From a virus, in UHGV virus genome UHGV-1361255: 55,716 nt of DNA; one strand, 5' to 3'. Below, one piece after another: positions 467 through 54,191 of the stretch. A model generated the notes under the pieces. That model had not been told where the DNA came from, ran no database searches, and saw only the letters and a list, made by a program, of their open reading frames with translations. Position 1 is the first letter of the stretch; every line of letters begins with the position of its first letter. A program made the position numbers and the translations under genes.

Positions 467-500
467 TTTTGGTGCGGCCCTAATGACTTAAGGATGGATC

Positions 501-4676: not shown

Positions 4677-5963
4677 ATGCCACAGATTGAAGAATTGCGT
4701 CGTCAGCGTGCGGGTATCAACGAACAGGTTCAGGCCCTGGCAACCATTGAAGCCGGCGGCGGCACGCTGACTGCGGAGCAGCTGACGGAGTTTGCGAACC
4801 TGCAGCAGCAGTTCACTGATATCAGCGCCAAAATGGAACGCCTGGAAGCCGCCGAACGTGCTGCGGCGCTGGTCGCAAAGCCCGTGAAAGCGACTCAGCA
4901 GGCCCCCGGCATTATTATTAAGCAGGAGCCGAAACAGTACACCGGTGCTGGCATGACCCGACTGGTGATGTCTGTCGCCGCAGGCGCAGGTAATCTGCAG
5001 GACGCGGCAAAATTCGCTTCAGAAGAGCTGAATGACCAGTCCGTATCGATGGCCATTTCCACCGCTGCGGGTTCCGGTGGGGCGCTCATCCCGGAGAACA
5101 TGCAAAACGAAGTCATCGAGCTGCTGAGCGACCGTACCATTGTCCGTAAGCTGGGTGCCCGCTCCGTTCCGCTGCCTAACGGCAATCTGACGTTACCGCG
5201 CTCGGCTGGCGGTGCAACGGCCAGCTACACCGGCGAAGGAAAGGATGCCAAGACGTCTGAATCAAAATTCGACGACGTAAAACTGAGTGCCAAAACCATG
5301 ATCGCCCTGGTCCCGATGTCGAACCAGCTGATTGGTCGCGCCGGTTTTAACGTTGAGCAGCTGGTCCTGCAGGATATTCTGACCGCCATCGCTGTTCGTG
5401 AGGATAAAGCGTTTATGCGCGATGACGGTACCGGCGATACACCGATTGGTATGAAGTCGCGTGCGACGCAGTGGAACCGCCTGCTGCCGTGGGAAGCGGG
5501 TTCCGCGATCAACCTGAACACGGTTGATGAGTACCTGGACAAGATTATTCTGATGGCGATGGATGGCAACAGCCTGATGATCCGTTGCGGCTGGGGTATG
5601 TCGAACCGTACCTATATGAAGCTGTTTGGCCTGCGTGACGGCAACGGCAACAAAGTCTACCCGGAAATGGCGCAGGGGATGCTCAAGGGCTATCCGATTC
5701 AGTATACCAGCGCGATCCCGGTTAACCTGGGCGAAAGTGGTAAGGAAACGGAAATTTATTTCGCCGACTTCAATGATGTTGTCATCGGTGAAGATGGTTC
5801 CATGAAGGTCGATTTCTCCAGAGAAGCCACCTATCTCGATGCAGAAGGTAACCCAGTTTCCGCGTTCTCGCGTAACCAGTCGCTGATCCGCGTTGTCCTC
5901 GAACACGATATCGGCTTCCGTCATCCGGAAGGCCTGGTGCTGGGTACCGGCGTCCTGTTCTAA
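4677..5963 (+). CDS. major capsid protein (HK97 fold, with N-terminal delta/scaffold domain)
   Basis: 428 aa after the protease; coiled-coil N-terminal ~100 aa then capsid-like domain; strong RBS. Confidence 0.8.
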   Translation: MPQIEELRRQRAGINEQVQALATIEAGGGTLTAEQLTEFANLQQQFTDISAKMERLEAAERAAALVAKPVKATQQAPGIIIKQEPKQYTGAGMTRLVMSVAAGAGNLQDAAKFASEELNDQSVSMAISTAAGSGGALIPENMQNEVIELLSDRTIVRKLGARSVPLPNGNLTLPRSAGGATASYTGEGKDAKTSESKFDDVKLSAKTMIALVPMSNQLIGRAGFNVEQLVLQDILTAIAVREDKAFMRDDGTGDTPIGMKSRATQWNRLLPWEAGSAINLNTVDEYLDKIILMAMDGNSLMIRCGWGMSNRTYMKLFGLRDGNGNKVYPEMAQGMLKGYPIQYTSAIPVNLGESGKETEIYFADFNDVVIGEDGSMKVDFSREATYLDAEGNPVSAFSRNQSLIRVVLEHDIGFRHPEGLVLGTGVLF

Positions 5964-5982
5964 CCCACCCCTCTGTTAATAA

Positions 5983-6004
5983 AGCCCGCATATGCGGGCT
6001 TTTC
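5983..6004 (+). terminator. intrinsic terminator after capsid gene
   Basis: palindrome agcccgcata/tatgcgggct followed by a T run. Confidence 0.6.
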
Positions 6005-6021
6005 CCTTTAAGGAGAATGTT

Positions 6022-6417
6022 ATGGCTGCGAAAAATAAAGCAGTGGAGCCGGAAGAAACGGTCGTACAGGACAACCATGCGACCGAGACCGCACAGGACA
6101 ACCATGCGACTGAGACCGCACAGGACAACCATGCGACTGAGACCGCACAGGATAACCATGCGACTGAGACCGCACAGGATAACCGTGCGACTGAGACTGC
6201 ACAGGATAACCGTGCGACCGTGGTCGCACAGGCAGAACGCAAATCCGTTGTGTTCCTCGGTCCGCATAGCCGTTATTCCCGTGGAGATATCGCGTGGTTT
6301 GAAGGATCGCACGCCGAAGAGCTGGTTAAGCGCCGTATCGCGGTATGGCCGAAGGATGCCGAACGCGCGCTGAAACCGAAGCCGGGAGACAGCGATTTTG
6401 ATACTGACATTGGATGA
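6022..6417 (+). CDS. hypothetical head-region protein containing 6 tandem DNHATETAQ nonapeptide repeats
   Basis: ATG at 6022 with AGGAG RBS at 6011; the repeats are open in several frames, so coding status is uncertain; the C-terminal 60 aa are non-repetitive. Confidence 0.4.
   Translation: MAAKNKAVEPEETVVQDNHATETAQDNHATETAQDNHATETAQDNHATETAQDNRATETAQDNRATVVAQAERKSVVFLGPHSRYSRGDIAWFEGSHAEELVKRRIAVWPKDAERALKPKPGDSDFDTDIG
6067..6228. repeat. tandem repeat, 6 x 27 bp (caggacaaccatgcgactgagaccgca consensus)
   Basis: six contiguous units at 6067, 6094, 6121, 6148, 6175 and 6202; units 1-4 are near-perfect, units 5-6 diverge; the last unit ends in a perfect sopC-like palindrome. Confidence 0.9.
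6213..6228. promoter_or_regulatory. F-sopC-like 16-bp inverted repeat tgcgaccgtggtcgca (centromere-like SopB site candidate)
   Basis: same arms as the five other copies; the central GT is AC when read on the other strand. Confidence 0.5.
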
Positions 6418-6715
6418 TGTGAAAACCCAGCTACGCCTGGAACTGGATTTCACGGAGCATGACGCCATGCTCACGCAAATGGTGAACGCCGCGCAGCGGA
6501 GCATCGAGCGTGATTACTACTGCAAGCTGGTCACCAGTGATGAAGAGCTGCAGGCGCTCCCGGAGACCGTCCGCGGATTTATCGCGGATGAAGATATCCG
6601 GCTGGCTATTCAGTTTCTGGTCAGCGATGCGTATCTGAATGGCCATACCGGACAGTGGCTGGAAACCGCTGCGGTGAGGCATCTTCTTTTCCCCCTGCAG
6701 GAGCATACGCTATGA
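6398..6715 (+). CDS. head-tail connector protein (gp6-like)
   Basis: 105 aa with gp6-type features (LTLDDVKTQLRL...); overlaps neighbouring genes at start and stop. Confidence 0.65.
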   Translation: MILTLDDVKTQLRLELDFTEHDAMLTQMVNAAQRSIERDYYCKLVTSDEELQALPETVRGFIADEDIRLAIQFLVSDAYLNGHTGQWLETAAVRHLLFPLQEHTL

Positions 6716-15694: not shown

Positions 15695-18600
15695 ATGGCA
15701 AATAACATAATTAAAGGGCGCAAGGGTGGCGGCTCAAAGCAGCGTACACCGACGGAACAGCCGGATGATTTACAGTCCGTTGCAAAAGCCAAAATTCTGC
15801 TCGCATTAGGTGAGGGTGAATTTGCAGGTGGTTTAACCGGGAAAGATATTTATCTTGATGGCACCCCGCTTGAAAATGCTGATGGTTCGCAAAACTTCAG
15901 TGGCGTGTCCTGGGAATTTCGCCCCGGCACGCAGGCTCAGACTTATATTCAGGGTATTCCCGGTACTGAAAATGAAATCAGTGTAGGAACGGAAGTTTCC
16001 AGCAAGACAGCCTGGACCCATACCTTTACTAATACCCAGCTTTCTGCCGTTCGTGTCCGCCTGAAATGGCCGTCCCTGATGAAACAGGAAGATGACGGCG
16101 ACGTGGTGGGCAATACCGTCAAGTATGCGATTGACCTGCAGACCGACGGCGGCGCCTGGCAGACGGTGCTGGAAACCGCTGTCACGGGTAAAACCACCTC
16201 CGGTTATGAGCGGAGCCATCGTATTGATCTGCCCCAGGCCGGCAGTACCTGGACGCTACGCCTGCGTAAAATCTCTCCGGATGCAAACAGTGTCAAAGTT
16301 GGCGACGTGATGACGCTGCAGAGCTATACCGAAGTGATTGACGCGAAGCTGCGTTATCCCAACACCGCGCTGCTTTATATCGAGTTCGACTCCAGCCAGT
16401 TTAATGGCTCCATTCCGCAAATTTCCTGTGAGCCGCGTGGGCGCGTGATTCGTGTGCCGGATAACTACAATCCGGAAACCCGCGAATATACCGGCGTCTG
16501 GACCGGCGGGTTTAAATGGGCCTGGACGGATAACCCGGCCTGGATCTATTACGACATTGTTACAGCTGACCGTTTTGGTCTCGGTAATCGTCTGAGCAGC
16601 GCCAATATTTCGAAATGGACGCTGTACCAGATTGCACAGTACTGCGATCAGCTGGTTCCTGACGGGCGCGGTGGTGACGGCATGGAGCCGCGCTATACCT
16701 GTAACGTCTACGTCCAGGAACGCAACGATGCTTACACCGTACTGCGAGACTTTGCCGCCATTTTCCGGGGCATGACTTGCTGGAACGGTGAGCAGATTGT
16801 TGTGCAGGCTGATATGCCGCGTGATGTCGATTTTACCTATACGCGCGCCAATATTGTCGGCAAACCCCGTTATTCGAGCAGCAGCAGCCAGGTTCGGTAC
16901 ACCAACGCCCTGGTTTCCTGGTCTGATCCGGATAATGCTTATGCTGATGCAATGGAGCCGGCGTTTATCCCGGAACTGGTTTCCCGCTACAGTTTTAACC
17001 AGCTCGAAATGACCGCGATTGGCTGTACGCGCCAGAGCGAAGCCCACCGTAAGGGGCTGTGGGGCATACTGACCAACAACAAAGACCGGGTCGTTGAGTT
17101 TGATGTGGGGCTGGACGGTCGCATTCCTCAACCCGGTTATATCATTGCCCTGGCGGATGAGTTGCTGGCCGGACGGGTCAACGGCGGGCGGATCAGCGCG
17201 GTGAATGGCCGGGTGATTACGCTGGATCGTGATGTGGATGCCAAACCTGGCGACCGCCTCCAGCTAAACCTGCCATCCGGGATCTCACAGAGCCGGACCA
17301 TCCAGGCCGTTAACGGACGCCGGCAGATTACGGTCACAACGGCGTACAGTGAGACGCCAGAACGGGAATGCGTCTGGGCCGTAGAATCTAATGACCTCTT
17401 TCTGCAGCAGTACCGGGTCACAGGGGTAAAAGAGAACGGCGATGCCACCCTCACGATCACCGGCGTGTCACATGACCCGGATAAATTCGCCCGCATCGAT
17501 ACCGGCGCGATTATCGATCAGCGCCCGGTTAGCGTATTGCCGGCGGGCAACCAGTCACCTCCTGACGATATTGTCATCACATCCCGCTCGGTCGTGAATC
17601 AGGGGATCAGCGTCGAAACGATGCAGGTTAACTGGTCAGCGGTCAGCGGCGCTATTGCCTACGAGGCGCAGTGGCGCCGTAACGACGGGAACTGGATTAA
17701 TGTTCCGCGCAGCTCGACCACCTCGTTTGAGGTCAGCGGCATTTATGCCGGTCGTTACCTGGTTCGCGTCCGTGCGATCAATGCGGCGGAGATCTCGAGC
17801 GGCTGGGCGTATTCCGAAGAGAAAACCCTGACCGGCAAGGTCGGCGAGCCGCTGGCACCGCTGGCGCTGGCAACCCGTTCGCTGGTTCATGGGGTCCAGG
17901 TTAGCTGGGAGTTCCCGACCGGCTCCGGGGATACGCTGCGCACGGAACTGCAGTACAGCAAAAACCAGGACGGCAGTGCGCCAATGCCGTTATCAGACGT
18001 AGCCTATCCGGGGAAAAGCTATCAGCAGATGGGCCTCAGTATGGGCGCAGAATTCTGGTATCGGGCGCGCCTTGTGGATCGTCTTGGCAATGAAAGCCCG
18101 TGGACCGGCTGGGTCCAGGGGATGGCCAGCGATAACTTTGATGACTACTACGAAAACCTGACCGACGCGATCAAGGATACGGCTGCCTGGGAGGAAACGC
18201 AGCGCACCATTAGCGAAACACAGGAAGGTATCCGCAATACGCAGCAGGAACTGGAGCAGACCGCTGAAGCTCTGCGTAAGGAAGCCGAAGACCAGGCGAA
18301 GCAGGTCAGCCAGGATATTGATGCATCGGCGAAAAGCATCACTGCTGATGTTGACGGGAAGATCTCCGCCGTGAATAAAACCATCACGGATGAGATTACC
18401 TCGGTCAATGAGGCTCTCGATTCTGGTCTGGCTCAGGCAAACAAAGGCGTTCAGGAGGCAAAATCCGCCGTCGCAGATGCGAACAAGCAGATCGCAACTG
18501 TGAACAAGTCGCTGACCGACAGCATCACCCAGGTAAGACAGTCAGTCACCGATACGGCTGCGGAAATCAACGCCACCATCGACCTGGAGATTGCCAGGGT

Positions 18601-46092: not shown

Positions 46093-46456
46093 TGAGCACC
46101 TTGACAGGAAATGACGTTTTAGCATTTGCCAAAACGCCTGTGTTTTTATACAGTATATTAATATTTTGTAAGACGAATAACGGGTAGGCTATGTGATGGA
46201 AGATACGGTCCTCTCAAATTGTGAAAGGCTGGACGCTGAGCTGAGTGATATCGATGCCGTATTAGATATGGTATCGGTGGCGATGGCATCCCCGGAGGCC
46301 AGTTTGCATGTGGCTCAAACTATGCGCCTCATTTGTATGTCACGTCGGATGTTGCAGCGGTGCCGGGATCTCAACAAGGTTGAAGGAAGAAGCCACTAGC
46401 CAGCCGAATTGAAAAAGGTGAGGTCTCCCTGACCTTTTACCAGATGCGCCTTATAT

Positions 46457-46486
46457 CCCCGTCCTTCAGGGCGGGGAGGATGTCAA
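46457..46486. repeat. solo copy of the IS605-family right-end-like hairpin motif ccccgtccttcagggcggggaggatgtcaa
   Basis: near-identical (about 33 of 36 nt) to the sequence immediately 3' of tnpB at 52594-52623; abuts the higA stop codon. Confidence 0.4.
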
Positions 46487-50424: not shown

Positions 50425-50643
50425 ATGCGCGTAATAACCCAGCTGATTATCTGCGTCGCTTTGGCCGGGTGCGTGAAATCAACGTCAATGACACCAACAC
50501 TGAATCCGGCTCCGTGCGCAGCGGAAAAGCCGGTGATTGATGTGGTTCACGTCGATGGGCATTTCGTTATCGATGATGACGATATGGGCAAACTGACCGG
50601 CTACATTGCCGCACTGGAAGCGGGCTGCACCGCACAGAAATAA
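50425..50643 (+). CDS. o-spanin-like outer-membrane lipoprotein
   Basis: 72 aa, lipobox LAGC, Pro- and Cys-rich mature part; follows the i-spanin gene (separated arrangement). Confidence 0.5.
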   Translation: MRVITQLIICVALAGCVKSTSMTPTLNPAPCAAEKPVIDVVHVDGHFVIDDDDMGKLTGYIAALEAGCTAQK

Positions 50644-50705
50644 AGTCAACTATAAAAACGACTATCTTCGCGACGGGTCACAGGATAAAGTATCTACGCA
50701 AATGA

Positions 50706-50735
50706 TTGACGTGTGTTGTATGTTGGCGGTAGAGT
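50706..50735 (+). promoter_or_regulatory. sigma70-like promoter TTGACG-18 bp-TAGAGT driving the locus-2 sRNA
   Basis: matches the locus-1 promoter in sequence and spacing. Confidence 0.4.
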
Positions 50736-50742
50736 TACCCCG

Positions 50743-50817
50743 CTGTAGCAAAATCTGCAGCCGGGCGTGAGAACCCGAGAGACAGTCAGCGCACAACACG
50801 CGCTTGCGTGTTTTTTT
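50743..50817 (+). ncRNA. candidate ~76-nt regulatory sRNA (P4 CI / N15 cA-like), locus 2
   Basis: hairpin gctgtagc-aaaat-ctgcagc, box A GCGTGAGAAC (50765-50774), intrinsic terminator cacgcgc-ttg-cgtg plus T7 (50797-50817). Confidence 0.4.
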
Positions 50818-50977
50818 GTGTGTAAATCCTGCGCATACCTGAATTATGGTGGCTCAGGTGGGGCAGCTTTCGGGCTGGCCGGTTGCTGATTGTGCCGGTT
50901 TCTCACCCCCGCCTGGGCTACCACCAATTGAGCGTGAGAACTCTGGTGGTGGCAAAACCATCAATCAGAGGTGAATC

Positions 50978-51142
50978 ATGTATCAGTTCAAATTCGCGGC
51001 GATCTGCCGTACCGACCGTAAAAACAACATTCATCATTTTTCGACTATTGCTGATAGTGAGCATGCAGCGCGCCGCCAGCTTTCCTACAAGTTCGTTCTG
51101 TTTTTCCAGGCACGCCTACCAGTATCGGGAGGTGCAGCATGA
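50978..51142 (+). CDS. 54-aa small protein (paralog of 35706..35870)
   Basis: GAGGTG RBS; stop overlaps the next start (ATGA); not in the ORF track because it is shorter than 60 aa. Confidence 0.45.
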   Translation: MYQFKFAAICRTDRKNNIHHFSTIADSEHAARRQLSYKFVLFFQARLPVSGGAA

Positions 51143-51363
51143 ATCAAATGAAAATGAACGAACATGGACTAGCTGAATCGCTAGAATCTGTACTCTGTCA
51201 GATAGTTGCTTTGCTAAATGTTACCCAGAATGCACTTGATGGAAGTGAAGGTAGCATCTATATGCGAGATGCTGTGCATATGCTTAATGCTGCGCGTAAT
51301 CTGGCCATTGAAGCAGAGCAATACCGATCCGAATGGGAACAACTGATTATTCGCAACCGGTAA
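51139..51363 (+). CDS. 74-aa helical protein (paralog of 35479..35709), C-terminus possibly altered by the tnpB insertion
   Basis: similar to the 76-aa paralog up to about residue 55, then diverges; ends 8 bp before tnpB. Confidence 0.45.
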   Translation: MNQMKMNEHGLAESLESVLCQIVALLNVTQNALDGSEGSIYMRDAVHMLNAARNLAIEAEQYRSEWEQLIIRNR

Positions 51364-51371
51364 GGGATTAT

Positions 51372-52580
51372 ATGTTGAAGCGGCAGGCCTTCAAATTCCA
51401 GCTAAGACCAAATGGTCAGCAGGAGCGCGATATGCGGCGCTTCGCAGGGGCTTGTCGCTTCGTTTTTAACCGCGCGCTGGCATTTCAGAATGAGAACCGT
51501 GAAGCCGGAAACAAATATATTCCCTACACCAAAATGGCTTCATGGCTCATTGAGTGGAAATCCGCACCGGGAACAGCATGGCTGAAAGAAACACCTTCGC
51601 AGCCGTTGCAACAGTCACTGAAAGATCTGGAGCGCAGCTACAAGAATTTCTTCCAGAAACGCGCAGCATTCCCACGGTTTAAAAAGCGCGGGAAAAGTGA
51701 TTCATTCCGCTATCCCCAAGGTGTGAAACTGGAGCAGGGAAACAGCCGAATTTACCTGCCAAAGCTGGGATGGATAGGTTATCGCAACAGCCGTGAAGTC
51801 ATTGGCGAAGTGAAAAACGTCACGGTCAACCAGTCATGCGGTAAATGGTACGTCAGTATCCAGACGGAATACGAAGTGGCTGCCCCCGCTCACCATGCAA
51901 AGTCAATGGTCGGGTTGGATGCCGGAGTCACGAAACTCGCCACGCTTTCAGATGGCACGGTATACCATCCAGTCAACAGCTTTAAAGCAAACCAGCGCAA
52001 GCTGGCAAAGCTCCAGAGGCAGTTAAGCCGCAAAGTTAAATTCAGTGCCAACTGGCAGAAACAGAAGAAAAAAATCCAGCGTCTGCACTCGCACATTGCC
52101 AATATTCGGCGCGACTACCTTCACAAAGTCACCAGTGAGATCAGCAAAAACCACGCAATGATCGTTGTTGAGGATTTGAAGGTAAGTAACATGTCGAAAT
52201 CGGCAAAAGGCACGGCAGAACAGCCTGGACGAAACGTCAGAGCTAAATCAGGCCTGAACCGTTCGATACTGGATCAGGGCTGGTATGAAATGCGTCGTCA
52301 GCTGGAGTACAAGCAACTCTGGCGTGGTGGTCAGGTACTGGTAGCTCCGCCAGCATACACGAGCCAACGTTGCGCCTGCTGTGGTCATACAGCGAAAGAG
52401 AACCGCCTGTCACAAAGTAAATTTGTATGTCAGGTATGCGGCTACACAACGAACGCCGATATCAACGGTGCTCGTAACATTTTAGCGGCAGGACATGCCG
52501 TGCTTGCCTGTGGAGGGATGGTGCAGTCAGGCCGCCCGTTGAAGCAGGAACCCATCGAGGTGATTCAGACGTCAGTCTGA
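51372..52580 (+). CDS. tnpB: TnpB (OrfB) RNA-guided endonuclease of an IS200/IS605-family element
   Basis: 402 aa from the ATG at 51372 ([17 protein letters not shown]); RuvC motifs GLDAGV, IVVEDLK and [10 protein letters not shown] with a CxxC...CxxC zinc finger, all intact. Confidence 0.85.
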
Positions 52581-52593
52581 ACGCGGTAGGAAT

Positions 52594-52623
52594 CCCCGTC
52601 CTTTAGGGCGGGGAGGATGTCAA
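52594..52623. repeat. IS605-family right-end-like imperfect hairpin ccccgtcctttagggcggggaggatgtcaa
   Basis: 14 bp after the tnpB stop; a second copy is at 46457-46486. Confidence 0.45.
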
Positions 52624-52668
52624 ATTGCTGGTCCGATGACAGGTCGCATAGCGGCAAAATTGAGACCG

Positions 52669-52684
52669 TGCGACCACGGTCGCA
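52669..52684. promoter_or_regulatory. F-sopC-like 16-bp inverted repeat tgcgaccacggtcgca
   Basis: part of a ~48-bp repeat unit aggtcgcatagcRgcaaaat...tgcgaccacggtcgcac that recurs 154 bp downstream. Confidence 0.55.
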
Positions 52685-52822
52685 CAGGCCAAGAACCGGT
52701 ATCCCCATTTAGGGATAAATCGTGTTCTATCCCTACAAAGGGATAAAACCCGGCCACAGTAGAGTGCAAGGTTGCCCCGCAATGCCCTATCCATAGGTCG
52801 CATAGCAGCAAAATAGAAGCCA

Positions 52823-52838
52823 TGCGACCACGGTCGCA
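52823..52838. promoter_or_regulatory. F-sopC-like 16-bp inverted repeat tgcgaccacggtcgca
   Basis: second copy of the 48-bp unit (52795-52843); an 8-bp stem hairpin tagggata/tatcccta lies between the two copies. Confidence 0.55.
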
Positions 52839-52871
52839 CGGGTCAGTGAATCAACAAGAAGATGAATAAAA

Positions 52872-52896
52872 ACACCACCTTCGGGTGGTTTTTTTA
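52872..52896 (+). terminator. intrinsic terminator upstream of the head-operon leader gene
   Basis: accacc-ttcg-ggtggt stem followed by T7. Confidence 0.6.
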
Positions 52897-52919
52897 TTTC
52901 AGATCACGGAGCGAAAAAT

Positions 52920-54191
52920 ATGAAAACGCCACTCACGTATGGTGCTTACCGAATTCTTCACGATTTATTTAAAAATGGGGTGACCTTCAAACGCGCCTTA
53001 CATCGTGAAAAATTACTCGAACTGGAAGAGCGAGGTTATGTTGCTACTTACGCCAACAACTTTGTCTATCTGACCCCCACCGGCCAGCAATATGCGATTG
53101 AAACCTTTTGGGGTGAGCATTCCAATGTTTGGCAAGTTGTCACTCAAGCTGCTCAAATCAGTAACGCTGGCATGTCAATTACCAAACTGGCTTCGGATTT
53201 GCCGGAAGCTAATAACGATATGACGAATCGGAGCTTTTCCAGCGTTGGTACCCTGACCTCAGGACCCGTATTAGAGCTATCTGATAGTGCTCAGGATGTG
53301 CTGTATGCTCTTTTTTTCCGAGGTGCACTCGTATCTGGTGATATTCCTTCAAAAGCCGGCGCCTCCGCACTGCGTTCTCTGGGATTTGCCGAGACCGGCC
53401 ATACAGCCACGCCATACAAAGGGGAAGACTATTTCACCTGGCTGACTCCTGCGGGGTATGCGTTCGCTATTGGGTATCTGGTTAAAACTCGCTTCGGCAA
53501 ACAGCCTGCAAATGCAAAATCTTCCGGGCAGCCCTCGGTTCATCCGGAAGGATTAAGCATTAACAAAGCCATGATTAAAGGGAAGATCAGTAGCGCAGCC
53601 TATGTTTGCGGCAATACCATCGAGGAGGAAACGCTGTCGAAGGTTCTGGCCAATTCACTGCATAACGTTCCCCATGAGAAAGCTGGCGATGTTGCTGAAC
53701 TACTGGCCAGGGCCGTTAAGTCTGCGTTTAGTGCGCTGGGGCATGCATCCGGTGAACAGGAAAAGGAACGGCCTAAAGAATCGGACTTATCCGTCGGTAC
53801 TTTCAAAGTTTATAGCGAGGGAGAGGTGAAGGTGGCTTCAGGCTCTCCCTTAGCTGCTGAAATAGAAGCCGGGCGTGAAGATCGCAAAACAGCAGGGACC
53901 ATTAATTTAAAACTGGAGCTGGATACCTCTGATGCCATCGAAAGCATTAATGGGCTGAGCAAAGAAATTTCAGATCTTGTTGATACTGCAATTGCCAACT
54001 CGCTCAAACCGGGTGGACGTCTGTACAACGTCGTGCGGGAATCTTCGTTTAACAGCTCGAATACTACCGCCCTTAACTCCCGTGTGACTGATCTTGAATC
54101 TTGTCTCAACAGCGCATGTGTTTTGATTAGTGATTTGTCTCGCCGTATTTCAGAACGTATCACTGGTGACGTCCATGCCAGCCCGGTCTAA
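52920..54191 (+). CDS. hypothetical 423-aa protein with two N-terminal repeats of a winged-helix-like unit
   Basis: internal duplication (YRILHDLFKNG...YLTPTGQQYAIETF and LYALFFRGALVSG...WLTPAGYAFAIGYL); first gene after the terminator and before the HNH endonuclease and terminase. Confidence 0.4.
   Translation: MKTPLTYGAYRILHDLFKNGVTFKRALHREKLLELEERGYVATYANNFVYLTPTGQQYAIETFWGEHSNVWQVVTQAAQISNAGMSITKLASDLPEANNDMTNRSFSSVGTLTSGPVLELSDSAQDVLYALFFRGALVSGDIPSKAGASALRSLGFAETGHTATPYKGEDYFTWLTPAGYAFAIGYLVKTRFGKQPANAKSSGQPSVHPEGLSINKAMIKGKISSAAYVCGNTIEEETLSKVLANSLHNVPHEKAGDVAELLARAVKSAFSALGHASGEQEKERPKESDLSVGTFKVYSEGEVKVASGSPLAAEIEAGREDRKTAGTINLKLELDTSDAIESINGLSKEISDLVDTAIANSLKPGGRLYNVVRESSFNSSNTTALNSRVTDLESCLNSACVLISDLSRRISERITGDVHASPV

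Follow-up and report, generated by a model that had tools for sequence, protein, structure and literature searches.

This work concerns a gene for TnpB, an RNA-guided nuclease, which lies at the end of a small operon in the virus genome UHGV-1361255. The whole stretch of 55,716 nucleotides (nt) is called the window below, and the operon with the DNA that belongs to it is called locus 2. Cas12 is considered to have evolved from TnpB carried by transposons. To our knowledge, beyond its nuclease-dead relative TldR, little is known of active TnpB that has been freed from its transposase. The window represents a Klebsiella phage-plasmid that resembles phiKO2 and N15 and is circularly permuted: its relative L013 (K. 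pneumoniae plasmid NZ_CP033624) aligns across the end and the start of the window, and positions 50600-53000 are 100% identical to the K. variicola plasmid NZ_CP151192.1. Other sequences used repeatedly in the comparison were Klebsiella phage 48ST307 (L001), a 378-kb conjugative megaplasmid of the Raoultella/Klebsiella type, IncU by MOB-suite (L003), the K. michiganensis plasmid pKOXM1C (L004), the plasmid NZ_CP036330 (L005), the Salmonella plasmid pSe13 (L010) and IMG/VR contigs (L028-L036). Plasmid counts were taken from PLSDB, AntA loci from IMG/VR, RNA families from Rfam, and protein families from Pfam and NCBIfam. The following features were found at locus 2.

50706-50735, plus strand: operon promoter TTGACG-18-TAGAGT (promoter scan); the conserved core of the module starts here.
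50729-50816, plus strand: isrK-like leader with the C4 target sites a1/b1, b1 being GUGAGAAC (Rfam isrK, 67.1 bits, threshold 50).
50795-50812, plus strand: leader attenuator, a terminator-like hairpin (terminator scan).
50842-50928, plus strand: C4-type antisense RNA (Rfam C4, 79.8 bits, E 6e-15, full-length model).
50929-50977, plus strand: target a2/b2 GAGCGUGAGAACUC and the translation start region of icd (alignment and reading of the sequence).
50978-51142, plus strand: icd, cell-division inhibitor, 54 amino acids (aa) (NCBIfam phage_ICD_like NF033153, 67.5 bits).
51139-51363, plus strand: antA, 74 aa, antirepressor homologue (tblastn to PY54 AntA and N15 gp31 homologues; alignment).
51364-51371, plus strand: antA-tnpB spacer GGGATTAT, 8 bp, the fusion junction (comparison with L003 and L004).
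51372-52580, plus strand: tnpB, 402 aa (open reading frame, Pfam, NCBIfam, alignment).
52477-52623, plus strand: predicted omega-RNA scaffold, overlapping the 3' end of tnpB (consensus fold of 9 copies).
52594-52613, plus strand: right-end hairpin CCCCGTCCTTTAGGGCGGGG (right-end comparison).
52614-52623, plus strand: cleavage tail AGGATGTCAA (right-end boundary from 8 independent copies).
52624-52641, plus strand: guide ATTGCTGGTCCGATGACA, 18 nt (match to sibling DUF4406).
52874-52889, plus strand: first strong terminator 3' of the operon (terminator scan).

An earlier note on this DNA, made from the letters alone, had described a 402-aa TnpB 8 bp after a 74-aa open reading frame (ORF), and this arrangement holds (ORFs 51139-51363 and 51372-52580). 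It had also placed a right-end hairpin at 52594-52623. The hairpin is there and the element does end at 52623, but the distance from the tnpB stop codon is 13 nt and not 14.

The window carries a second operon of the same type on the minus strand (locus 1). It consists of a C4 region (36210-35880), icd (35879-35706), a 76-aa gene (35709-35479) and a BRO-N gene (35482-34700); the succession of the last two genes had been reported in the same way before. The icd genes of the two loci are 65% identical. In N15 and phiKO2, the immA operon contains icd, then antA, whose product counters the prophage repressor, and then antB, whose function is unknown (PMC4488713). By this order, tnpB at locus 2 takes the place of antB, and the antirepressor gene is kept. 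A third gene of the antB type (BRO-N) occurs in the window at locus 1 only, and tnpB fills this slot at locus 2. Thus, the idea that tnpB stands in the position of an antirepressor gene was right as to the BRO-N slot, but the insertion is not recent and the antirepressor gene antA has not been lost. Locus 2 is collinear with P1 immI and with immA of N15 and phiKO2, and shares with them the promoter, the leader targets, the C4 RNA, icd and antA. It differs from them in that antB/BRO-N is replaced by an RNA-guided nuclease with its guide, and in being a second operon of this kind in one genome, with a C4 specificity of its own and at a different locus, in the place of DUF4406. Judging from this gene order, locus 2 is an anti-immunity operon of the immI/immA type, with the third gene exchanged for tnpB.

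The regulatory part of the operon had been called a riboswitch. The Rfam scores (79.8 bits for C4 and 67.1 for isrK as above, and 46.0 bits in the leader for the c4-a1b1 model, just below its threshold of 46.7) identify it as a C4 antisense-RNA switch instead. The recognition segment of the locus-2 C4 RNA, UUUCUCAC (50895-50912), has the matching target GUGAGAAC, which is present twice. At locus 1, the segment AUUCCUAC (35960-35940) goes with the target GUAGGAAC, and in L028 the segment AUUGCGAA goes with UUCGCAA. When five modules are aligned, changes in the recognition segment are compensated at both targets. This covariation argues that the locus-2 circuit is intact and orthogonal to the canonical immA of the window; the switch at locus 2 has a private specificity. 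The module of L013 and the module of the megaplasmid L003 bear the locus-1 C4 specificity; therefore, the canonical immA C4 could cross-regulate both of them.

The homology to L028 begins at 50706, and the -35 hexamer lines up in all five modules. In the scan of the operon region, no other plus-strand promoter-like site was found besides 50706-50735. Between 50812 and 52874, no strong plus-strand terminator was found, only a weak 5-bp stem inside tnpB (51447-51461). A LexA box was not seen by eye at the operon promoter, and the CTG...CAG present there is the stem of the a1b1 hairpin. On the minus strand, a promoter-like site TTGAAG-16-TATAAT (10 of 12 matches, 51394-51367) runs from the tnpB start back into antA and falls in the module-specific junction. 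On the 3' side of the guide, two inverted-repeat blocks (52641-52691 and 52795-52845) are followed by the terminator at 52874-52889, and there is no further gene before 52920. This agrees with the earlier description of the tail apart from its remark that the antirepressor gene was missing, which was a mislabel because the 74-aa protein is itself the AntA homologue. The repeat blocks (GGTCGCATAGCGG...GCGACCACGGTCGCAC), which the earlier note had termed centromere-like, were confirmed as repetitive, and a further one lies at 6209-6238.

Over its whole length, the 74-aa protein can be aligned with PY54 AntA and with the AntA of N15-like phage-plasmids that lack tnpB. It had been proposed that this protein diverges from its locus-1 paralogue only in the last ~20 residues, and that the left end of an insertion sequence (IS) had overwritten the 3' end of the gene. 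Neither proposal was borne out. Identity to the 76-aa protein is 41% in residues 1-59, and the remainder of the two proteins cannot be aligned. No IS left end is present; by comparison with IS copies, the IS homology stops at the ATG of tnpB, and the sequence upstream is antA. The C-terminus of the window's AntA is AEQYRSEWEQLI, and the corresponding subclade motif AEQYRxEWExLI is kept in modules with an unrelated TnpB and no tnpB nucleotide similarity (L010, L013, L032 and L034). The motif is also present in L031, where AntA is followed by BRO-N and there is no tnpB. The earlier note had named a C-terminus conserved in relatives without tnpB as a refutation of its account, and this refutation applies in full; the 74-aa gene evidently codes for a full-length AntA with its native C-terminus. 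Among the IMG/VR AntA loci, those with ≤42% identity have BRO-N as the next gene, and those with ≥51% identity have a TnpB of either of two families; L031 is the sole exception among the latter. A scan of genome contigs with the AntA alignment yielded 3 loci only, all of the canonical BRO-N type.

The junction between antA and tnpB is shared well beyond the window. It is letter-for-letter identical in L003, and six more such plasmids have it. In L004 it differs by point changes alone (a TAG stop codon and the spacer GATATTGT). It also occurs in other phiKO2-like plasmids and in the contigs L028-L030, so that it is found in at least three replicon backgrounds, at 87-91% identity. A sequence resembling a Shine-Dalgarno site, AAGGGA, overlaps the antA stop codon. 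We place the start codon of tnpB at 51372 because a longer ORF from 51333 is broken by TAA in L004. The module-linked TnpB begins with MLKRQ, and every IS copy begins with MKRLQ. Over the first 100 nt of tnpB, module copies are 93-98% identical to one another and 88-89% identical to IS copies. These comparisons indicate that the antA-tnpB fusion was a single ancestral event which has spread over several replicon backgrounds, and that tnpB is the terminal gene of a conserved operon rather than an independent insertion. As another ground for refutation, the note had named tnpB at this position with identical flanks in all homologous genomes. This one applies in modified form: the junction is ancestral to the module, but most siblings do not have the module at all. 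We hold this structural and evolutionary part of the model with high confidence.

The earlier explanation was a recent IS200/IS605 insertion that displaced the antirepressor gene and fused its left end to the 3' end of the 74-aa gene. Such an insertion would fit the presence of a right end and the location of tnpB where BRO-N lies in locus 1. It is contradicted by the missing left end, by the native C-terminus of the 74-aa protein, by the same junction at 87-91% identity in other replicons, and by the comparison with siblings, in which the indel is a whole module of 1995 bp and not tnpB alone. We consider a recent insertion highly improbable. Some traces of the older history may be left in L003 (4148-4191 and 4915-4960). 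A higBA pair 96% identical to that of the window lies directly to the left of its module, a degenerate left-end remnant (..GAGATATAAGACGCGGTTT) adjoins the module promoter, and a degenerate hairpin resembling a right end follows TTAT beyond higA. These remnants hint that the cassette and tnpB once lay together between IS ends. A query joining both L003 flanks, made with such a compound transposon in mind, found no uninterrupted empty site in PLSDB.

The protein itself belongs clearly to the TnpB family. It matches the Pfam families PF01385 OrfB_IS605 (112.7 bits), PF07282 Cas12f1-like_TNB (81.3 bits) and PF12323 HTH_OrfB_IS605 (53.5 bits), and scores 368.8 bits with the NCBIfam model guided_TnpB NF040570, whose cutoff is 100. 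The RuvC residues D183, E267 and D363 and the zinc-finger pairs C334/C337 and C353/C356 are all present, as the earlier note had stated, and they are intact in all module copies. By its residues, TnpB of the window should be catalytically intact. This bears on the possibility that it works as a nuclease-independent RNA-guided repressor. TnpB relatives in prophages are known to have become transcription factors, and TldR resembles our protein in being a TnpB relative with a fixed guide and no transposase in a temperate phage. In TldR-like proteins, unlike here, the catalytic residues are not intact, and the target is a host promoter rather than a gene of a sibling element. With the RuvC residues and the zinc finger preserved in every module copy and the protein full length, such a repressor is very unlikely.

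By prediction, the ~150 nt that end at 52623 form a conserved structure in which long-range pairs reach the right-end tail. In the consensus fold of nine copies, this pairing is ACAUUUU/GGAGGAU, and only 3 base pairs covary. The Rfam models HgcC (28.7 bits) and sot0042 (22.5 bits) gave scores over the omega-RNA region that are both below threshold. The anatomy of the parent IS was taken from independent copies in Xylella, Pantoea, Serratia, E. coli and Klebsiella plasmids. The full element consists of TTAY, the left end CAGRTGCGCC...CCCCGTCCTTCAGGGCGGGGATATAAGGCGCGG, a divergent tnpA, tnpB and the right end ...CCCCGTCCTTTAGGGCGGGGAGGATGTCAA. Five left flanks were read: TTTAT in three, GTTAT in one and TTTAC in one. 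A derivative without tnpA, with the left end 43 bp 5' of tnpB, is present in L005 and L006. The segment from tnpB to the right end occurs at ~87% identity in more than 1800 PLSDB records, and database records name the TnpB relatives insQ or ydcM, which we take to be the TnpB of IS609. A tblastn search of the window, with TnpA of the full element as the query, found no tnpA, in line with the earlier observation, and there was no second tnpB. The left-end motif was not found 5' of tnpB or of the module; the sole left-end sequence in the window belongs to a chimera at 46441-46486, described below. The nuclease of locus 2 appears to come from an IS609-like member of the IS200/IS605 family, with TTTAY as its target and ...GATGTCAA as its right end, both the left end and tnpA having been lost. 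Compared with an autonomous IS200/IS605 element, locus 2 has the right-end hairpin and the TCAA cleavage site and lacks tnpA and the left end, and its tnpB should be unable to transpose on its own.

The body of tnpB has a history different from that of its junction. Between the window and L004, identity is 99.4% in the left flank, 97.3% in C4-icd-antA and 88.9% in the segment from tnpB to the right end. In 100-nt windows, tnpB of L003 is mostly 96-100% identical to a Serratia IS copy, and tnpB of L004 is 97-100% identical to the IS copies of L005/L006 at nt 701-900 and 1001-1100. This mosaic suggests that the tnpB body, the right end and the guide have been replaced repeatedly by recombination with mobile copies. 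Such recombination offers a putative route by which module copies could gain new TTTAY-derived guides. The ratio of nonsynonymous to synonymous substitution rates (dN/dS) between module tnpB copies is ~0.1. We dropped it as a sign of module-specific purifying selection because the tnpB bodies are exchanged with IS copies.

The mosaic also speaks for the main rival of our interpretation, a hitch-hiking IS remnant. An IS609-like copy would have landed by antA once, lost its left end through a deletion that stopped by chance at the start of tnpB, and travelled along with no use to the phage-plasmid, being kept intact only by gene conversion from active IS copies. The abundance of this IS in plasmids fits such a passenger, as do the two mismatches between the window's guide and every sampled target, described next. 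Against it stand the Shine-Dalgarno-like sequence and tight spacing, which are kept at the junction in diverged copies, and the properties of the sister modules, to which we return below. Taken together, we find a selfish passenger unlikely, but it has more in its favour than the other alternatives.

The earlier note had suggested a comparison with related genomes that lack the insertion. The flanks of locus 2 are 98-99% identical to L001, and between them the indel proved to be the whole module and not the IS alone: window positions 50647-52641 (1995 bp) replace 295 bp that encode a DUF4406 protein, with boundaries at 50646/50647 and 52641/52642. Among the PLSDB Klebsiella plasmids, 164 have DUF4406 at this locus and 8 have the module. 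By this distribution, the module and DUF4406 are alternative alleles. Of DUF4406, the window retains nothing but the guide, the 18 nt that follow the right end (ATTGCTGGTCCGATGACA); the earlier note had correctly called it as the DNA beyond the right end (attgctggtccgatgac...). The same stretch in siblings is TTTAT followed by ATTGCTGGCCCGATGACC, covering codons 4-10 of DUF4406, and the guide matches it at 16 of 18 positions, with mismatches at positions 9 and 18. The empty site TTTAT-ATTGCTGG... was seen in 12 of 12 sampled siblings. Written with the alternatives at position 9, the target is TTTAT+ATTGCTGG(C/T)CCGATGAC. In the window, the guide has no other match and no TTAY-flanked near-match. 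In L004, the right end adjoins ACCACGGTTCACTATCCGCC, which is the 3' end of DUF4406; it is preceded by TTTAT in siblings and matches at 20 of 20 positions.

In the window, the remainder of DUF4406, which lies at 3066-3343 in L001, is deleted exactly after the 18 guide nt. CCGG microhomology and a later C-to-A change would fit this junction. What is kept next to the right end is of guide length: 18 nt in the window, 32 nt in L028 and 16 nt in L013. We also scanned metagenomes with a 17-mer spanning the right end and the guide. There were at least 120 matches, none with right-end context among the screenable loci; the pattern is too short, and these matches look like chance.

Sister modules carry guides of other kinds. 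The contig L028 has a module of the TnpB1 type, so called to distinguish it from TnpB2 below, after the parB gene of its own host replicon. The 32 nt after its right end match an internal stretch of parB in phage-plasmids of K. oxytoca, K. grimontii and K. pasteurii at 32 of 32 positions, and parB of K. aerogenes at 31 of 32; four sibling plasmids have the stretch in identical form. In both targets that were read, one perfect and one with 31/32, the match is preceded by CTTAT. Beyond the 32 nt, L028 is unrelated to parB, and its own parB has 9 mismatches in the guide stretch. The guide thus corresponds to parB of siblings and is not simply local flank.

In L013, an AntA 91% identical to that of the window is followed by a second nuclease, TnpB2, with overlapping stop and start codons; this module lies between terS and terL. 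TnpB2 has 34% protein identity and no nucleotide similarity to TnpB of the window. It also comes after AntA in pSe13 (L010) and in the contigs L032-L036. Diverged forms lie 3' of icd-antA in L068 and L069, with gaps of ~0.4 kb and 1 kb, and in L070 only icd was detected upstream. PLSDB holds 8 records of TnpB2, all linked to modules, the next matches being below 40% identity; a free IS form of TnpB2 was not found in PLSDB. On the 3' side of TnpB2, the final 29 nt of its right end (..GGGCGGGGATAGGTCG) are found again behind spacers of 31-32 nt, with one or two spacers per array, and the repeat varies with the TnpB2 lineage. Such mini-arrays of repeat, spacer and repeat were seen in L010 (5050-5180), L032-L036 and L069. 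In pSe13, the region 3' of TnpB2 is present twice with its array, in inverted orientation (5951-6420 and 4880-5260), which may reflect assembly of a linear replicon with hairpin ends.

Four spacers match phage-plasmid genes: one the protelomerase gene of N15-like plasmids from Salmonella (32/32), one a hypothetical gene (31/32), one a tape-measure gene (30/32) and one a tail gene of Klebsiella phage-plasmids (28/32). The 5' flanks of these protospacers are, in the same order, GAAAG, TTAAG, TCAAG and CGAAA (AAG, AAG, AAG and AAA). The protelomerase case includes a carrier. The L035 module adjoins its own protelomerase gene (2399-2550), and over 152 nt this gene has six differences from those of L036 (7288-7439) and L060. 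All six fall inside the 32-nt protospacer, and five of the six are synonymous. This pattern argues for real targeting, with self-protection of the carrier by recoding. For several spacers and for the guide of L003, no significant match was found; every guide or spacer with a significant match points to genes of sibling phage-plasmids.

Two candidate matches were not counted. The L013 module is followed by a 16-nt repeat of the terL start, which has no AAG flank and may be an insertion duplication; the terS-terL junction of the window (468-499 and 501-516) is the site of the TnpB2 module in L013. The match of the L068 guide to N15 overlaps a terminator hairpin. The window contains one similarity to a sister array. 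Positions 16616-16647, in a tail gene of the DUF1983 type, match a spacer of the L034 array at 27 of 32 positions, the first 19 nt exactly, with the flank CGAAA, and the window phage-plasmid would thus itself be a near-target of a sibling's array. In format, the TnpB2 arrays resemble clustered regularly interspaced short palindromic repeats (CRISPR) of type I-E, in the 29/32 nt lengths, the AAG flank and the repeat core GCGGGGATA. With what we take to be the E. coli I-E repeat, the TnpB2 repeat agrees at 18 of 29 positions. The window has a single right end; no repeat of it was found on its 3' side, and there was no CRISPR-type array in the window.

These modules are what a passenger does not readily explain. 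A second, unrelated TnpB family occupies the same operon position behind a closely related AntA, it is without free IS copies, and it shows true targeting signatures; and the guide of L028 has a perfect 32-nt match to sibling parB with a target-adjacent motif (TAM). We tentatively suggest, with a little less than even confidence, a whole family of RNA-guided nuclease cassettes gated by antisense RNA, to which the module of the window would belong and which N15/phiKO2-like telomere phage-plasmids would use against siblings, in interference and homing. At least two recruitments of TnpB to the antB slot would have taken place. In that of TnpB2, the older one, the last 29 nt of the right end would have been duplicated into arrays with 32-nt spacers and a flank of the AAG type, which would make an independent, nascent CRISPR-like system.

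In another conceivable role, TnpB would replace AntB in the decision between lysis and lysogeny, for example through a double-strand break that triggers the SOS response, or through a cut in the host or its own genome, and would not be aimed at siblings. The place of tnpB beside antA in an anti-immunity operon is compatible with such an induction trigger, the function of AntB being unknown (PMC4488713). The window has no site consisting of TTAY and a guide-like sequence, and all guides and spacers with a significant match point to sibling phage-plasmid genes. We regard an induction trigger as quite unlikely.

For the window, we somewhat favour the reading of locus 2 as a C4-gated RNA-guided nuclease directed against sibling phage-plasmids, either in interference or in homing. 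Transcription of the operon would require that its own C4 RNA is lacking or outpaced, as may be the case when the phage-plasmid has newly entered a cell. A resident sibling, if it carried only the locus-1 type of C4, would presumably be unable to silence it. From the transcript would come the omega-RNA and the proteins Icd, AntA and TnpB. With the guide ATTGCTGGUCCGAUGACA, TnpB would recognise TTTAT and ATTGCTGGCCCGATGACC at the start of DUF4406 in siblings without the module. After the cut, the sibling would be destroyed, or it would be repaired with the module copy as the template and would exchange DUF4406 for the module. From the cut, the homology boundaries would be 33 bp away on the left and ~260 bp away on the right. 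The operon anatomy, the shared junction, the intact C4 circuit, the match of the guide to a TAM-flanked site and the targeting signatures of the sister modules are seen directly in the sequences. Co-transcription, omega-RNA production, cleavage, its timing and the biological outcome are deduced from sequence, and for this functional part of the model we see the chances as evenly balanced.

Several observations weigh against this reading. Any TnpB guide derived from an IS matches its own empty site; thus, the match between guide and target in the window is alone no proof of selection. The strongest targeting signatures come from the sister modules and not from the window. Only a minority of siblings carry the module, and any drive must therefore be weak. 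The intact tnpB ORF and the dN/dS of ~0.1 may reflect the IS pool rather than selection on the module. Position 9 is C in 12 of 12 sampled targets and T in the guide, where it would pair as an rU:dG wobble, and position 18 is C in the targets and A in the guide. In one TnpB orthologue, single mismatches at positions 5-12 strongly cut activity, and the same characterised orthologue needs at least 12-14 nt of pairing (PMC12781874).

The window contains a second copy of the same IS in reduced form.

46441-46486, plus strand: chimera of the left and right ends, 46 bp (comparison with both ends).

It reads TTAC, CAGATGCGCCTTATATCCCCGTCCTTCAGGGCGGGGAGGATGTCAA, GTTCAG and lies 2 bp from the stop codon of higA. 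The earlier note had seen here a near-identical copy of the hairpin beside higBA, and the copy does adjoin higA (46455-46486). The 5' half matches the left end of L005-L009 and the 3' half matches the right end, the hairpin being common to both. At this very site, the Klebsiella plasmid NZ_CP036330 (L005) retains a whole tnpB-only IS whose flanks and left-end variants are those of the chimera; therefore, the chimera arose by an internal deletion between the two hairpins. Clean excision would have left TTAC joined directly to GTTCAG. The suggestion that this solo hairpin marks an excised copy was thus right about a former copy but not about the way it was lost. In other plasmids, the same IS often adjoins toxin-antitoxin genes (HTH/RelE, Phd/YefM, RelE).

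The system combines features of several known ones, and in its working it would come closest to a free-standing homing endonuclease or to a CRISPR effector that a mobile element directs at relatives. It shares with IS200/IS605 TnpB and its omega-RNA (IS609-like, insQ/ydcM type) the protein family, RuvC, the zinc finger, the right-end hairpin, the TCAA tail, a guide taken from the DNA beyond the right end, TTTAY before the target, and ~87% identity to copies with tnpA and a left end. It differs in lacking the left end and tnpA, in the close translational coupling of tnpB to antA and in the module-specific N-terminus. In addition, the guides of the window and L028 are short (18 or 32 nt) and are followed by unrelated DNA rather than a continuous flank. 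Free-standing homing endonucleases of phages, which act in intronless homing, are likewise nuclease genes between conserved genes, with a target at or near the same locus in relatives without the nuclease, and with the carrier protected by an absent site, as in the window, or a recoded site, as in L035. Here, recognition would instead be by a guide RNA and a TAM, and expression would be gated by an antisense RNA. CRISPR mini-arrays and systems of types IV and V-M are used by viruses and plasmids in competition between mobile elements (PMC11656645). As in such arrays, the spacers here are directed at close relatives of the carrier and the arrays are very short. The window differs from them by its single transposon-style guide, and the sister modules by a repeat taken from the TnpB right end, of which it makes up the final 29 nt. 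The nuclease in both is a TnpB and belongs to no recognised Cas12 subtype. In searches combining TnpB with phage-plasmid, antirepressor, N15, TranC and IS609, no publication was found that describes TnpB as part of an anti-immunity operon or as a gene of N15-like phage-plasmids.

Thus, a TnpB that looks active is wired to a C4-controlled anti-immunity operon of phage origin in a clinically common group of Klebsiella phage-plasmids. If the proposed reading is true, this would be a natural RNA-guided conflict or gene drive between closely related phage-plasmids, and the C4 switch would supply a concrete regulatory logic for the time at which the nuclease fires. The family would also offer a living intermediate on the way from a transposon guide to a CRISPR array.

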